From the NCBI RefSeq assembly GCF_013167455.1, contig NZ_CP038328.1: a stretch of 64,000 nt of DNA; one strand, 5' to 3'. The translations under genes and the position numbers were made by a program. Under the pieces are notes generated by a model. The model had not been told where the DNA came from, made no database searches, and saw only the letters and a list, made by a program, of their open reading frames with translations. Shown one piece after another: positions 383 through 14,988 of the stretch. This DNA is from Escherichia coli O157:H7. GTDB taxonomy: Bacteria > Pseudomonadota > Gammaproteobacteria > Enterobacterales > Enterobacteriaceae. Within the stretch, counting starts at the first letter, position 1; every line of letters starts with the position of its first letter.

Positions 383-613
383 GTGCGTAATACAGGAGTA
401 AGCGCAGATGTTTCATGATTTACCGGGAGTTAAATAGAGCATTGGCTATTCTTTAAGGGTGGCTGAATACATGAGTATTCACAGCCTTACCTGAAGTGAG
501 GACGACGCAGAGAGGATGCACAGAGTGCTGCGCCGTTCAGGTCAAAAAAATGTCACAACCAGAAGTCAAAAATCCAATTGGATGGGGTGACACAATAAAA
601 CAGGAAGACAAGC

Positions 614-7516: not shown

Positions 7517-9982
<2,466 letters not shown>

Positions 9983-9998
9983 GTTCGCTAAAAAACAG

Positions 9999-10026
9999 AA
10001 CGGGGCCACAAGGTCCCGTTTTTTTC
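9999..10026 (+). terminator. rho-independent terminator of glgCAP
   Basis: 9-bp stem (aacggggcc / ggtcccgtt, one G-U pair), loop acaa, followed by a run of 7 T. Confidence 0.8.
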
Positions 10027-10097
10027 GCCTTTATTTCGGAAAAGTGTCCAGAGGGGGCGAGGGTTCTCGGGGAGTATAATTCCGTCATTCAGGAAGA

Positions 10098-11615
10098 ATG
10101 GACAGAATGATGCCAAATAGAAAATGGATTTTGACCTCGCTGATAATGACTTTTTTCGGCATCCCCATACTGGCGCAATTTTTGGCAGCGGTTGTTGCCA
10201 TGCTGGGTGTCGGGCTTACCGGTATTATTGAAGTTTGTAATATCCTTATCACGCCAACAATTTATCTTCTACTCAACGTCTTTATGCTGACGCTGGGGGC
10301 GATAATAATATTTTTCTCTGGTCGCGTGTGGGCCGGTGATAGCGCGCCAGAAAACAGAGAAATAGCCGTCTGGCGGCAATGCTTTTTTCTCTTACCCGCG
10401 CTATTAACCCTGGTTGGCTGGATAATCACGCTACATCTGGCAGATTATCAATTTCGCCAGATGGGAGCTGGTTGGTTGGCAAACCTTATGCTTCCCTGGT
10501 TGGGCGTTTTTTTAGTCTCATTAGTGGGTGGTGAGTACTGGTGGATGGTCATTATTCCCGTTGGGGCGCATATCAGTTTTTCGCTGGGATACGCCTGGCC
10601 GACCAGATATCCTTTATCCGGCACGTCCGGACTACGTTGCCGTAACTTACTCCTGTTTCTACTTCTCTTACTTGGTATTGTCGCCGGGTATCAGGCCCAT
10701 TTATATAAGCAGCAAAATCCTGGTGTCGGTGTACGCGAAAATATTGATATCAGGGCCTGGCGACCCGATAAACTCAATAATCGACTGACGCCGCTGCGTG
10801 GCAAACCGCAAATTCAGTTTAGGCAAAACTGGCCGCGAATCGATGGCGCCACGGCTGCGTACCCAATTTATGCTTCTGCATTTTATGCATTAAGTGTAAT
10901 ACCAGAGGATTTTCACGTTTGGGAATATCTGGAGAACTCTCGTACCCCCGATGCATATAACCGGATTGTTAAAGGTGATGCCGATATTATTTTTGTGGCG
11001 CAACCCTCCGGCGGGCAGAAAAAACGCGCTGAGGAATCGGGCGTCACTTTGCTATACACGCCATTTGCCCGTGAAGCATTTGTTTTCATCGTCAATGCGG
11101 ATAATCCGGTTAATTCCCTGACTGAACAACAGGTGCGTGACATTTTCAGTGGTGCAATTACCAATTGGCGTACTGTTGGCGGTAACGATCAGGAGATCCA
11201 GACCTGGCAGCGCCCGGAAGACTCTGGCAGCCAGACAGTGATGCAATCACAGGTCATGAAAAAAGTCCGCATGATCTCGCCGCAGGAAACGGAAGTGGCA
11301 AGCGTGATGGAGGGAATGATTAAAGTCGTTGCCGAATACCGTAATACAAACAACGCAATAGGCTATACCTTCCGCTATTACGCGACGCAAATGAATGCTG
11401 ATAAAAATATAAGATTGCTAGCGATTAACGGTATTACACCGACGGCGGAAAACATTCGCAACGGCAAATATGCGTACATCGTCGATGCATTTATGGTGAC
11501 GAGAGAAAATACAACGTCAGAAACACAAAAACTGGTCGAATGGTTTTTAACGCCGCAGGGGCAGAGTCTGGTAGAAGATGTGGGATATGTGCCGCTGTAT
11601 CTAACAATGGAATAA
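10098..11615 (+). CDS. uncharacterised fusion protein: N-terminal polytopic membrane domain (about 6 predicted TM helices, residues 1-210) plus C-terminal PstS-like periplasmic phosphate/anion-binding domain
   Basis: 505-aa ORF; N-terminal half is strongly hydrophobic. C-terminal half carries PstS-family signatures as I recall them: GATAAYPIYASAF, QRPEDSGSQ (compare RADGSGTS in PstS), IGYTFRYYA, ITPTAENIRNG. Start may be M1 or M4/M5; AGGAAG SD precedes 10098. Confidence 0.8.
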   Translation: MDRMMPNRKWILTSLIMTFFGIPILAQFLAAVVAMLGVGLTGIIEVCNILITPTIYLLLNVFMLTLGAIIIFFSGRVWAGDSAPENREIAVWRQCFFLLPALLTLVGWIITLHLADYQFRQMGAGWLANLMLPWLGVFLVSLVGGEYWWMVIIPVGAHISFSLGYAWPTRYPLSGTSGLRCRNLLLFLLLLLGIVAGYQAHLYKQQNPGVGVRENIDIRAWRPDKLNNRLTPLRGKPQIQFRQNWPRIDGATAAYPIYASAFYALSVIPEDFHVWEYLENSRTPDAYNRIVKGDADIIFVAQPSGGQKKRAEESGVTLLYTPFAREAFVFIVNADNPVNSLTEQQVRDIFSGAITNWRTVGGNDQEIQTWQRPEDSGSQTVMQSQVMKKVRMISPQETEVASVMEGMIKVVAEYRNTNNAIGYTFRYYATQMNADKNIRLLAINGITPTAENIRNGKYAYIVDAFMVTRENTTSETQKLVEWFLTPQGQSLVEDVGYVPLYLTME

Positions 11616-11640
11616 CGCTCGAGAGAAAGGAATCAGCGAG

Positions 11641-12633
11641 ATGAATAAATTCACCGGTGTTTTACTATTAGGCACGGCGTTACTGGCGGGATGTGTCGAC
11701 CGGGAAGGGTACTATAACAGCGTCAGGGAAGAAGAGAGCCATGGACTGACGTCTCTGCGGGGGCAACCTGCATTACGTTACAGCGATGATTGGTCAAGAT
11801 GGCCGAGAGTGTACGGCGCTACAGCCTTATACCCGCTGTATGCCTCCGCGTATTATAAATTAGTACCCGAGCCAAAAGATAAGGATCGAACCTCGCTGGC
11901 CTGGCAGGCGTATGGTTTGCAGCAAACCCGAACAGCTGAAGCCTACGATAGTCTGATTAAAGGTTCCGCGACGGTTATTTTTGTTGCACAACCGTCGGAA
12001 GGACAGAAAAAACGTGCAGAAGAAGCGGGTGTTAAACTGAAATATACCGCTTTCGCCCGCGAAGCCTTTGTCTTTATCGTTGATATTAATAACCCGGTAA
12101 ATTCTCTCTCTGAGCACCAGGTTAAAGATATTTTTAGCGGCAAAACTAGCCGCTGGAATAAAGTAGGTGGTAGTGACGAACATATAAAAGTCTGGCAGCG
12201 CCCTGAAGATTCTGGAAGCCAAACGATTATGAAGGGGTTGGTTATGCAAGACACCCCAATGCTGCCAGCTAAAAAATCCACTGTGATTGATCTTATGGGC
12301 GGTTTAATTACTGAAGTTGCCGACTATCAAAACACGCCATCTTCCATTGGGTACACCTTCCACTATTACGTCACTCGTATGAATGACAATATGCTCAAAA
12401 TGCGCAAGCAGATTAAACTTTTGGCTATAAATGGCGTTGCGCCTACCGAGGAAAATATCCGCAACGGCACTTATCCATACATTGTGGATGCCTATATGGT
12501 GACGCGTGAAAATCCCACGCCGGAAACGCAGAAATTTGTTGACTGGTTTATAAGTCAGCAGGGGCAACAGTTGGTAGAGGATGTGGGGTATGTGCCGCTG
12601 TATGAAGCATCCCCCGAATCATCAGGACAATAA
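11641..12633 (+). CDS. PstS-like phosphate/anion-binding lipoprotein (paralog of the C-terminal domain of the upstream gene)
   Basis: 330-aa ORF; signal peptide with lipobox LLAGC; roughly 60-70% identity by eye to residues 230-505 of ORF 10098-11615, sharing the FVAQPS.GQKKRAEE, AREAFVFIV, WQRPEDSGSQT and VEDVGYVPLY blocks. Confidence 0.85.
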   Translation: MNKFTGVLLLGTALLAGCVDREGYYNSVREEESHGLTSLRGQPALRYSDDWSRWPRVYGATALYPLYASAYYKLVPEPKDKDRTSLAWQAYGLQQTRTAEAYDSLIKGSATVIFVAQPSEGQKKRAEEAGVKLKYTAFAREAFVFIVDINNPVNSLSEHQVKDIFSGKTSRWNKVGGSDEHIKVWQRPEDSGSQTIMKGLVMQDTPMLPAKKSTVIDLMGGLITEVADYQNTPSSIGYTFHYYVTRMNDNMLKMRKQIKLLAINGVAPTEENIRNGTYPYIVDAYMVTRENPTPETQKFVDWFISQQGQQLVEDVGYVPLYEASPESSGQ

Positions 12634-13235
12634 TGATGAATATAATCAGACTTTATATTTATCCGTTATTTCTCGGCTTTGTTATTGTACCGTTGTTGGT
12701 GTGGCCGACGGTGGTTGCGCTGGCTGCCTGTGTAATCACGCTGAGTTTTCTGGGAGAAATACTGTTCTCAATCCCGCTCATGCACAGGCGTATTTCCCTT
12801 CTGCAATTACAACTATGGTTATCGGCTGAATATGCGCTTTTCTTCTGTGCAATGGTGGGCGTTGGTTGGCAATTTGCGCGCAGAACGCCACCTGAATTGA
12901 AAAGCAGACTGCATTGTTGGCTGGTATTTGCACCAGTTTATTTCTGGTTGCTCCTGTGGAATATCATTTTTTATGTCGCGCCAGCGCAAATTGCTTTGCT
13001 GGAAAATATGCGCAGTTTCTTTCTGACAGTTGTCTGGCTCCCACTGAATTTTTCGCCATTTTGGTCTCAACAGTGGATCGACTTTGTCGGTCCGATAAGT
13101 GCACAGCTTGGTTTTGCGTTGGGATATTATTGCCAGTGGCGTAGCAAAAATAGAAGCCAGATACGGAAGTGGAGTGAGTGGGGAACGTGCTTAAGTTTTG
13201 TTACGTTGGGTATGATGGCGTGGGCTTTGCGGTAA
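12633..13235 (+). CDS. integral membrane protein (about 6 TM), paralog of the N-terminal membrane domain of ORF 10098-11615
   Basis: 200-aa hydrophobic ORF; its ATG overlaps the upstream stop (TAATG); shares LGFALGYYCQW versus ISFSLGYAWPT and a similar helix spacing with the ORF1 N-domain. Confidence 0.7.
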   Translation: MMNIIRLYIYPLFLGFVIVPLLVWPTVVALAACVITLSFLGEILFSIPLMHRRISLLQLQLWLSAEYALFFCAMVGVGWQFARRTPPELKSRLHCWLVFAPVYFWLLLWNIIFYVAPAQIALLENMRSFFLTVVWLPLNFSPFWSQQWIDFVGPISAQLGFALGYYCQWRSKNRSQIRKWSEWGTCLSFVTLGMMAWALR

Positions 13236-13288
13236 TTCCCTGAATCAAAAAGTAGGTCAGATTGTTGACAACGTGGCGCTTTGTTCAT

Positions 13289-13449: not shown

Positions 13450-14955
13450 TTACGACGCCAGCGACAACTTCTGCTGCGTATATTCCACCAGCCACTGACT
13501 CACACGAGATTGTTGATCCGCATTCAGCCACATGCCTTGTTTTGTGCGACGCCACAGGGCATCGTCGGCGCGGCGGACCCACTCGTGGTCGACCAGATAT
13601 TTCAGCTCCGTTTCGTAGAACTCATGACCGAAATCTTCCCCAAGATCGCTTACCGCTCCCGCATTGCCGAGCAGCAGCTCGCTGTTGCTGCCATAAGTAC
13701 GCGCGTAATGACGTGCCAGCGATTCGGTCAGGAACGGATAACGGCGGCGTAAGCGAGCGGCATAATCGTCGCGGTCGCCCTCGATGGCGCCACCCGGTAG
13801 CACGCTCTCTTTCGTCCATGCCGGGCCAATACCCTGATAATACGGCGTTAGTTTTTCCAGCGCATGTTCCGCCAGTTTTCGGTAGGTGGTCAGCTTACCG
13901 CCGAATACCGACAGCAGCGGTGCTTTGCCATTTTCATCATGAATATCAAGGGTGTAATCACGGGTAATAGCCTGCGGCGAGTCGGACTCATCATCACACA
14001 GCGGACGCACACCGGAGTAGGTCCAGACGATATCGTCACGGCTAAGCTGTTTTTTAAAGTGCGCGTTATACACTTTCAGCAGGTAATTGATTTCACTCTC
14101 TTCAATCTTCACTGCTTTCGGATCGCCTTTGTATTCCACATCGGTGGTGCCGATGATGGAAAACTCGTCCATCCACGGGATCACGAACACAATACGTTTA
14201 TCTTCGTTTTGCAGAATGTAGGCCTGCTTTTGGGTATGCACGCGCGGCACCACAATATGGCTGCCTTTGATCAGGCGAATGCCATAAGGCGAAGGCAGAT
14301 GCATCCCGTCGTCGAAGAACTGTTTCACCCACGGGCCGGTGGCGTTAACCAGGCCGCGCGCTTGCCAGCTATATTTTTTGCCGGTATCGATATCTTCCGC
14401 TTCCACAATCCACAGGCCGTTTTCGCGACGAGCAGAAGTAGCACGAGTACGAGTAAGCACTTCGCCGCCTTTACGCACCACCATCTGGGCGTTGGCGAGC
14501 ACCAGACGGGCATCGTCTACCCAACAGTCGGAATATTCGAATCCGCGCTTAATTTCCGGTTTTAACACTGAATTTGCGCCAAAACGCAAACCAGTTGATC
14601 CCGGCAGGCTGGTGCGTTTACCCAGATGATCGTACATAAACAGACCAATGCGAATCATCCACGCCGGGCGCAGATGCGGACGATGTGGCAGGCGAAAACG
14701 CATCGGGAAGGCGATATGCGGGGCCATTTTCAGCAGCACTTCACGTTCAGCCAGCGCCTCGCTGACCAGGCGGAATTCATAGTGCTCAAGGTAGCGCAGG
14801 CCACCGTGAATGAGTTTTGAACTGGCGGAAGAGGTCGCGCAAGCGAGATCCTGCGCCTCCAGCATCAGCACGGATAAACCGCGTCCAGCGGCGTCTGCCG
14901 CGATACCAGCACCATTGATGCCGCCACCTATCACAATCAGATCTTTGGTTTCCAT
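13450..14955 (-). CDS. glpD: aerobic sn-glycerol-3-phosphate dehydrogenase
   Basis: ORF track 13450-14970; protein METKDLIVIGGGINGAGIAADAAGRGL... (FAD GGGxxG motif); start set at the internal Met to give the 501-aa form. Confidence 0.95.
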   Translation of the reverse strand: METKDLIVIGGGINGAGIAADAAGRGLSVLMLEAQDLACATSSASSKLIHGGLRYLEHYEFRLVSEALAEREVLLKMAPHIAFPMRFRLPHRPHLRPAWMIRIGLFMYDHLGKRTSLPGSTGLRFGANSVLKPEIKRGFEYSDCWVDDARLVLANAQMVVRKGGEVLTRTRATSARRENGLWIVEAEDIDTGKKYSWQARGLVNATGPWVKQFFDDGMHLPSPYGIRLIKGSHIVVPRVHTQKQAYILQNEDKRIVFVIPWMDEFSIIGTTDVEYKGDPKAVKIEESEINYLLKVYNAHFKKQLSRDDIVWTYSGVRPLCDDESDSPQAITRDYTLDIHDENGKAPLLSVFGGKLTTYRKLAEHALEKLTPYYQGIGPAWTKESVLPGGAIEGDRDDYAARLRRRYPFLTESLARHYARTYGSNSELLLGNAGAVSDLGEDFGHEFYETELKYLVDHEWVRRADDALWRRTKQGMWLNADQQSRVSQWLVEYTQQKLSLAS

Positions 14956-14988
14956 GCTGCCCTCATTCACTTTCGTTAAAGTTCATAA

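Follow-up and report, generated by a model that had tools for sequence, protein, structure and literature searches.

Organization of the glgP–glpD Locus

The window analyzed here is a 64,000-nucleotide stretch of DNA from Escherichia coli O157:H7, in which the locus between glgP and glpD is O-island 133 (OI-133) in the EDL933 naming; its genes and the elements discussed below are collected in Table 1. Over 3.65 kb of the region, the sequence is 100% identical to that of O157:H7 chromosomes. Z4789 is listed under OI-133 and glpD is ECs4269 in Sakai; with these as anchors, the Z numbers of the genes, including Z4789 for gene 1, and the other ECs numbers were assigned via gene order. A gap of 124 bp separates glgP from the first gene of OI-133.

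Table 1. Coordinates of Genes and Sequence Elements at the glgP–glpD Locus (Window Positions)
Feature	Position	Strand	Remarks
glgP	7535–9982	+	NF011562 glycogen phosphorylase, 1846 bits
glgP stop codon TAA	9980–9982	+	
Intrinsic terminator of glgP	9998–10025	+	10-bp stem 9998–10007/10012–10021, loop ACAA, U7 10019–10025
Conserved upstream block ATTTCGGAAAAGTGTC	10033–10048	+	consensus ATTTCRGAAAAGTGCC; ~−54 to −39 from the inferred start
G-rich spacer over the −35 position	10049–10074	+	no TTGACA-like hexamer
−10 hexamer TATAAT	10075–10080	+	perfect consensus
CCGTCAT	10082–10088	+	variable within E. coli: TTCGCCAT or TTCACCAT
Predicted transcription start	10086–10088	+	inferred, 6–8 nt past the −10
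AGGAAG, Shine-Dalgarno-like	10091–10096	+	full only in the O157 window and the near-identical Escherichia sp. E1V33
GGACAG (GGAAAG in most strains)	10100–10105	+	better-conserved candidate ribosome-binding site, 4 nt before ATG 10110
Gene 1 (Z4789; EDL933_RS22790)	10110–11615	+	hydrophobic N-terminus and PBP_like_2 (PstS-like) domain
Gene 2 (RS22785)	11641–12633		PBP_like_2
Gene 3	12633–13235		without family match
glpD	13450–14970		convergent

The hydrophobic N-terminal region of gene 1 probably spans the membrane, its product being a membrane-anchored protein, and the product of gene 2 is probably a lipoprotein. Gene 1 matches Pfam PF12849 (8.7e-29; ~1e-29 for the PBP_like_2 domains), the nearest solved structures to the PBP_like_2 domains are phosphate-binding proteins (~1e-16), and the R-x3-S-G-S/T phosphate-loop motif is kept in the PstS-type domains of the locus products. 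The PBP_like_2 domains are true PstS-family folds, such that the description of these products as PstS-like, made in a preliminary description of this DNA, is justified for the fold and the loop motif, but it does not extend to orthology: the scores against TIGR02136, the NCBIfam PstS family, are 122 and 119 bits and fall below its cutoff of 206.6, and no pstCAB partners, permease genes or ATPase genes were found in the locus, which together do not fit a PstS orthologue. Thus, with sub-cutoff PstS scores, no pstCAB, and products that are a membrane-anchored protein and a probable lipoprotein, there was never a strong reason for expecting a Pho box in front of these genes. PADLOC returned no defence-system match for any product of the O157 cassette or of the alternative cassette found in other strains. 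In Leclercia, a homologue of gene 1 adjoins a PPK2 gene.

Ancestry of the Locus

The preliminary description had treated these genes as an island, a term that is misleading here. Of 5426 complete E. coli genomes, 4583 carry the 261 bp surrounding the gap with a coverage of at least 80%, and E. albertii, E. whittamii and two further Escherichia species have this region too. A contig search with gene 1 gave only Escherichia, and the wider taxa were reached through a protein search combined with contig neighbourhoods, which placed homologues of gene 1 (46–54% identity) between glgP and glpD in Klebsiella, Phytobacter, locus L029 and Salmonella locus L031. The same glgP–gene–glpD arrangement is found in E. 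albertii and E. whittamii, and in other Salmonella loci and in Intestinirhabdus the homologues adjoin glpD.

In K-12-type strains the terminator and the promoter region survive together with the beginning of gene 1, as the yzgL (b3427) pseudogene, a locus that laboratories have used as a neutral insertion site. The K-12 locus shares the terminator, the conserved block, the −10 hexamer and the start codon with O157 at ~91% identity, but has lost ~2.85 kb, comprising most of gene 1 along with genes 2 and 3 (an estimate from match coverage). Further variation is seen among other E. coli strains, some of which carry a different downstream cassette or an IS1 insertion at the locus, and in some of which a fimbrial operon replaces everything from just past the glgP stop. 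The G+C content of OI-133 is 0.43–0.51, vs about 0.50–0.55 in the flanks. With the same gene order across genera and K-12 yzgL as a deletion remnant, the locus is ancestral and variably decayed rather than a recent insertion. This corrects the picture of O-island 133, which has a conserved promoter module of its own and is old in the enterobacteria.

Terminator behind glgP

The hairpin behind glgP has the features of enterobacterial Rho-independent terminators, with a G+C-rich stem of 7–10 bp, a 4-nt loop and a U7 tract, 16 nt past the stop codon, and compared to the usual members of the class we see nothing unusual in it. An A-run upstream of the hairpin (9990–9995) gives it a two-way look. 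Its centroid energy is −16.8 kcal mol–1, with a z-score of −2.45 vs shuffles (RNAfold). In eight sequences from four Escherichia species, Klebsiella and Phytobacter, 98.8% of the pair cells are paired, and the stem shows a single compensatory change, G-C to A-U, besides a single G-U/G-C alternation, although this conservation of pairs is statistically weak, with 75 of 500 shuffles being equally good. The same terminator is found behind the glgP genes of Escherichia, Klebsiella and Phytobacter, and behind those of L029 and L031. Both the fold and the conservation thus bear out the strong intrinsic terminator of the preliminary description, which had placed it one nucleotide further downstream, at 9999–10026. 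In E. coli strains with the fimbrial operon, in contrast to the arrangement here, homology ends just past the glgP stop and a different hairpin comes next.

We note that a simple terminator scan of the window did not call this hairpin, apparently because its maximal stem extension uses the T-run, and that an Rfam search of 9850–10250 gave no match above noise. The part of the K-12 Term-seq tables of Adams 2021 consulted here has no entry for a glgP 3′ end, and its only 3′ end for yzgL is antisense and is that of the glpD terminator. The Rho-independent terminator would end the glgCAP transcript directly behind the glgP stop, and would insulate gene 1 from glgP to some degree. A direct repeat, TTTCG-N6-TTTCG, overlaps the U-tract and is not kept in Klebsiella.

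A Consensus −10 Hexamer without a −35 Element

A TATAAT-like hexamer had been described upstream of gene 1, and this element is not only present but is a perfect TATAAT, although at a position one base away from the one originally given (10074–10079, which reads GTATAA). The hexamer is rarer than expected in the 64-kb window, with 9 copies observed on both strands vs 19.8 ± 4 expected, so that finding it in perfect form 30 nt ahead of a start codon is not trivial. Thirteen Escherichia sequences all have it unchanged, and other genera have TATACT, TATAAT or TATCAT in its place. The distance to the ATG is kept across genera, with the first base of the hexamer 35–39 nt upstream of the start codon.

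The absence of a convincing −35 element, also claimed at the outset, was confirmed: at spacers of 15–19 bp the best match to TTGACA is 2/6, and there is no TG extension of the −10 hexamer. In line with this, a sigma-70 consensus scan gave no plus-strand promoter upstream of gene 1, and our reading of the upstream regions of Klebsiella, Salmonella and Phytobacter shows that a −35 hexamer is absent there as well. The position of the transcription start in Table 1 is a prediction from the −10 hexamer, and it would give a leader of ~23 nt ahead of the conserved ATG at 10110.

A Conserved Block Upstream of the −10 Hexamer

Comparison across genera revealed a second conserved element, a 16-bp block (consensus in Table 1). 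Its first base precedes that of the −10 hexamer by 42 bp (41 bp in one locus), and this spacing recurs in ten loci from at least four named genera: O157, a K-12-like strain, E. albertii, E. whittamii, Klebsiella L020, Salmonella L019, L031 and L023, L029, and Phytobacter. The ~26-nt spacer between the block and the −10 hexamer has diverged across these loci, and in none of them does it carry a −35. In L029, ~500 bp of tandem repeats separate the glgP terminator from the block, and Salmonella L019 has an Fe-ADH gene upstream in place of glgP, which together indicate that the block and hexamer form a module belonging to gene 1 and not to glgP. The spacing is shorter in L024 and L030 (29 bp), and the module is absent from the distant homologues L022 and L027. 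Both count against a promoter here, as does conservation within Escherichia alone, which is ~90% and no higher than in flanking coding DNA. The part of the block that is not A/T-rich, GTGCC, is conserved as well. The window shows no enrichment of ATTTCNGAAAA when at most one mismatch is allowed (8 copies vs 5.5 expected).

The presence of a −10 hexamer and a block at fixed spacing across genera is a phylogenetic footprint that supports a −35-less promoter belonging to gene 1 itself, and the block may be either a UP-like element of A/T tracts or a putative activator operator. With class II-type activator-dependent sigma-70 promoters that lack a −35, and with UP-element promoters such as rrnB P1, the region shares a consensus −10, the lack of a −35 and an element conserved upstream of −38. 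The block here is, however, centred near −46, vs −41.5 or −61.5 for activator sites, and matches none of the transcription-factor motifs with which it was compared. We compared the block and the G-rich spacer by eye with motifs, and found no fit to sites for CRP, FNR, CpxR, BaeR, GlpR or AllR, for RcsB, CsgD, Fis, IHF, the mar box or NsrR, or for sigma-54, sigma-32, sigma-E or sigma-28. Sigma-S was likewise set aside: although the hexamer of Klebsiella and Salmonella reads TATACT, position −13 is not a C, and the Z4789 signal is up, not down, in an rpoS mutant. The UP consensus of Estrem et al. in 1998 reportedly runs from −59 to −38 as nnAAAWWTWTTTTnnAAAAnnn. The block is shifted by a few bp relative to this consensus. 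The promoter here also differs in being silent in standard media.

Ribosome-Binding Site and Start Codon

Three starts come into consideration for gene 1: the conserved ATG at 10110, the RefSeq start at 10107, and the start of the longest open reading frame at 10098. The first of these aligns with the start codon in Klebsiella, in Salmonella and in K-12 yzgL. At the RefSeq position, the annotated start reads ATA in most other E. coli strains.

The preliminary description had named AGGAAG as the Shine-Dalgarno sequence. The sequence is there, but it is probably not the functional ribosome-binding site, as it is both lineage-specific and badly spaced, lying 1 nt from the ATG at 10098 and 13 nt from the conserved ATG, and other E. 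coli read AGAAAG, AAAAAG or AGCAAG in its place. In the better-conserved candidate GGACAG, the GGA is invariant in all aligned Escherichia sequences.

Transcription Data

Published Cappable-seq data for EDL933 (PMC10469882) cover LB, LB-acid, LB-salt and M9, each in exponential and stationary phase, giving eight conditions, with start sites assigned to genes up to 250 bp downstream. Window positions were obtained by subtracting the NZ_CP008957 coordinate from 4377543. Table S5 of that study has no start-site row for gene 1 (RS22790) in any of the eight conditions, and passes from RS22785 (4365869, window position 11674, detected in 6/8 conditions) to RS22795 (glgP) as the next row. Thus, the predicted start of gene 1 (4367455–4367457) was not detected. 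For K-12, the text of the Ettwiller 2016 supplement shows no match near the predicted coordinate, although this text may stop short of that part of the genome. The earlier claim that these genes have a promoter region of their own therefore stands on the conservation of the −10 hexamer and the block across genera, but is not matched by a start site in these eight conditions.

The array signal of Z4789 is near background (log2 of 3.1 in the wild type and 4.4 in the rpoS mutant), and such a very low signal fits a silent promoter. In K-12 at low phosphate, glgP reaches ~43,000 normalised reads. As a lead only, we note that a CpxR table gives K-12 yzgL a −2.0-fold change.

Absence of a Pho Box

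Two matrices were used to scan for PhoB sites, the first built from the 12 EDL933 Pho boxes in Table S4 of Chekabab et al. 2014 (PMC3978041), and the second from the 59 ChIP-seq sites in Table 1 of Fitzgerald et al. 2023 (PMC10294691). With matrix 1, the best match in 9983–10130 lies on the minus strand, within the beginning of the coding sequence, and scores 4.8 bits, where the known boxes obtain 6.8–19.6 bits on leave-one-out. With matrix 2, the best match is 7.98 bits, on the minus strand at 10032–10049; this is below 96.6% of the real sites (which have leave-one-out medians of about 15 with the two matrices, 14.7 with matrix 2), and 31 positions in the window score at least as high. As a positive control, matrix 1 ranks a site upstream of glgB (539–556) seventh in the window, at 11.9 bits, and this site is the K-12 PhoB ChIP-seq peak at 3573580 (PMC10294691). 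The position-weight-matrix scan that the preliminary description had proposed thus yields no high-scoring Pho box upstream of gene 1. The partial match CCGTCAT, which that description had pointed out after the −10 hexamer, is present where it was placed, and was rejected as a PhoB site: both matrices give ~1.1 bits to the 18-mer that ends with it (1.06 with matrix 1).

The experimental data point in the same direction. In the K-12 ChIP-seq data (PMC10294691), obtained with a tagged PhoB that is partly functional and bearing on K-12 intergenic DNA that is only ~91% identical to that of O157, there is no peak between 3458489 and 3573580, and thus none at yzgL/glgP (3563724–3564134). Z4787–Z4789 are absent from the EDL933 low-phosphate and phoB microarray tables S2 and S3, which list genes changed at least 2-fold. 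The orthologous upstream regions of other species, in turn, have no consistently placed Pho box. The two matrices, the K-12 ChIP-seq data and the EDL933 microarray tables all agree with the original observation that there is no recognisable Pho box.

The region does resemble the Pho promoters of pstS, phoA, phoE and ugpB in having a good −10, no −35 and PstS-type domains encoded downstream. In those promoters, however, a Pho box replaces the −35, and there is none in that place here; unlike the Pho regulon, moreover, the locus has no K-12 PhoB ChIP peak, lies outside the EDL933 low-phosphate and PhoB lists, and has no adjacent pstCAB. PhoB control of the gene 1 promoter is therefore unlikely, and PstS-like products do not imply control by the Pho regulon at this locus.

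A Candidate Activator-Dependent Promoter

Taking these observations into account, we favor, with a probability of roughly 60%, a reading in which the glgP terminator is followed by a native promoter of gene 1 that lacks a −35 and depends on an activator other than PhoB. Fifty bases past the terminator would thus lie the native promoter of a gene for a PstS-like membrane protein, made up of the TATAAT hexamer and the upstream block, with neither a −35 nor an extended −10. A putative activator would bind to the block or to the G-rich −35 region and recruit RNA polymerase in a condition outside the eight sampled. It is the combination of a perfect −10, no −35 and no start in eight conditions that makes dependence on an activator the likeliest possibility. 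The feature as such is an ordinary terminator–promoter junction, and its only mildly new element is the conserved 16-bp block. Going further, the block may be the operator of an unrecognised activator that switches the module on in response to a signal other than phosphate starvation, but we offer this as a speculative suggestion with a low probability of being right.

The missing start site, the very low array signal of Z4789, and the lack of a −35, a TG extension or a recognised activator site would also be expected if there were no functional promoter at all, with gene 1 transcribed only via read-through from glgCAP, and the TATAAT and block either conserved for another reason or simply inherited. 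As glgP is so highly expressed, even a few per cent of read-through could dominate the transcription of gene 1. This account has to contend, however, with a hairpin and U7 tract that have the design of a strong terminator, and with a module architecture that is kept both where glgP is not upstream (L019) and beyond ~500 bp of repeats (L029). Furthermore, a −10 hexamer that holds a constant distance to both the block and the ATG, across a spacer that has diverged, is hard to explain without function, and we consider transcription by read-through alone to be unlikely. The promoter could also be real but need no activator, if the block were a UP-like element through which the alpha C-terminal domains compensate for the missing −35, giving weak constitutive expression. 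The block does read as (A/T)TTTC-nn-AAAA-nnn, similar to the 3′ two-thirds of the UP consensus, and occupies the −54 to −39 zone, but we estimate that a canonical UP element would sit 3–5 bp closer to the −10, and its conserved GTGCC is not needed by such an element. With a UP element to assist it, a perfect −10 should give constitutive transcription in ordinary media, where no start was seen in the eight conditions; this favors an activator over a UP element, and leaves the latter distinctly improbable.

Least credible is a non-canonical form of control by PhoB, whether from the inverted match at 10032–10049, from an intragenic match at 10236–10253, or by an indirect route. The phosphate-loop motif of the products and the PPK2 gene beside the Leclercia homologue are in keeping with such a link, as are the 12.7 bits that the intragenic match obtains with the ChIP-derived matrix, which is within the range of real sites, and a Pho box of 19.5 bits that covers the start codon in Phytobacter, on the minus strand. 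However, the inverted match has only 8 bits, and is on the wrong strand and at the wrong position for activation; the intragenic 18-mer is identical in K-12 and yet gives no ChIP-seq peak there, and the match is not kept in other Escherichia. When the silence of the EDL933 phosphate and PhoB expression tables and the lack of a consistently placed Pho box in the orthologous regions are added to this, we give control by PhoB very little credence.

Deletion of OI-133 has been reported to reduce type III secretion. On the speculative reading of the block as the operator of an unrecognised activator, such control could underlie this phenotype. The widely conserved enterobacterial module that the activator would switch on consists of the membrane-anchored PstS-like protein together with variable small partner genes (YbbD_head, DUF4279). 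For work on the phenotype, the regulatory region is narrowed to 80 bp and the candidate operator to 16 bp.

PhoB-Matrix Matches in the Window and in Phytobacter

In the surroundings of the glg operon, the top Pho-box-like site lies upstream of glgB, where it scores 11.9 bits with the matrix built from 12 EDL933 Pho boxes and 18.3 bits with the ChIP-derived matrix, the site itself being among the training sites of the latter. Its K-12 counterpart carries a PhoB ChIP-seq peak (3573580; PMC10294691), and glgB expression does not change significantly in the phoB mutant.

Two further matches fall within or beside the island genes, as listed in the table below. The one inside gene 1, which encodes the PstS-like membrane protein, ranks 6th in the window with the ChIP-derived matrix, and its 18-mer is identical in the K-12 remnant yzgL, where K-12 PhoB ChIP-seq shows no peak; the 18-mer is not conserved in the other Escherichia lineages compared. 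The match on the far side of gene 3 ranks 8th in the window with the 12-site matrix, and again there is no K-12 PhoB ChIP-seq peak nearby. A very strong match is found in Phytobacter (locus L025), where it spans the gene 1 homologue's start codon, compared with 7.4 bits at the equivalent position in E. albertii and 3.6 bits in O157. Both the orientation and the position of this minus-strand match are wrong for activation.

Coordinates of features in the window and in the comparison loci (L handles)
Feature	Location	Strand	Remarks
Pho-box-like site (A)GGTCAAAAAAATGTCACA	window 539-557	+	upstream of glgB; PhoB matrix scan
O-island 133	window ~10027-13235
RefSeq ATA starts of gene 1 (= window 10107)	L003:758, L004:758, L006:508, L007:508, L008:509, L002:759
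PhoB-like match TGTAATATCCTTATCACG	window 10236-10253	+	inside gene 1; 12.7 bits, ChIP-derived matrix
Cappable-seq start site	window 11674 (EDL933 4365869)	+	in 5' end of gene 2
PhoB-like match TTGTCAACAATCTGACCT	window 13254-13271	minus	between gene 3 and glpD 3' end; 10.75 bits
Pho-box match ATTTCATATTCCTGTCAC	L025 2990-3007 (Phytobacter)	minus	19.5 bits
Gap-variant loci	L010 + L011 (2584-3070 and beyond); L009 (2659-3411)		fimbrial operon or IS1
Tandem gene 1 homologues / variable cassettes	L003 2281-4369; L020 5838-6958; L023 4519-7172; L026 1-7468; L024 3001-6118
Type VI secretion IcmF/TssM gene	L024 1-2757 (Intestinirhabdus)		neighbour of distant gene 1 homologue
PPK2 polyphosphate kinase	L027 4625-5449 (Leclercia)		neighbour of distant gene 1 homologue
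Large AAA_11/AAA_12 helicase with DUF2726	L030 5292-7521 (metagenome contig)		neighbour of distant gene 1 homologue

Transcription Start Site in Gene 2 and Start Codon of Gene 1

The start site in gene 2 is reproducible in EDL933, being present in 6 of 8 Cappable-seq conditions (PMC10469882), and is preceded by a -10-like TACTAT (11663-11668). It falls within the predicted lipoprotein signal peptide of gene 2 (MNKFTGVLLLGTALLAGC). The corresponding transcript could not encode the full-length lipoprotein, and the site represents either the start for a shorter gene 2 product or an internal pervasive start. Perfect TATAAT hexamers are depleted about two-fold, with 9 copies on both strands of the whole window against 19.8 ± 4.0 expected from 100 dinucleotide-preserving shuffles, all 100 of which contained at least 9 copies.

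For gene 1, RefSeq places the start in most non-O157 E. coli at an ATA codon immediately 5' of the conserved ATG, whereas the corresponding O157 codon is itself ATG. The ATA start looks like an annotation propagated by homology.

Variation of the glgP-glpD Gap and of the Gene 1 Module

The gap between glgP and glpD is polymorphic within E. coli, with most of the region missing in ~840 of 5426 complete genomes. The three variant loci examined (L009, L010 and L011) hold a fimbrial operon encoding major subunit, chaperone and usher, with a different hairpin and an AT-rich leader of ~480 bp directly 3' of the glgP stop, or else an IS1 insertion at ~window 10058, in the -35 zone. Locus L029, from another taxon, carries ~500 bp of tandem repeats (~2400-2920; unit ~95 bp) that separate the conserved promoter block from the glgP terminator, the units being G+C-rich, palindromic and REP/BIME-like.

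Tandem paralogues are frequent among the gene 1 homologues, with two or three copies in series and a variable set of small genes (YbbD_head, DUF4279-like or unannotated) behind them. Genes 2 and 3, the O157 partners of gene 1, are just one among several cassettes, and the cassettes of the gene 1 module gave zero matches to PADLOC defence models. In a published screen, a TUV93-0 mutant lacking O-island 133 was reported to secrete less through its type III system (PMC3378721; restated by the review PMC10877973).
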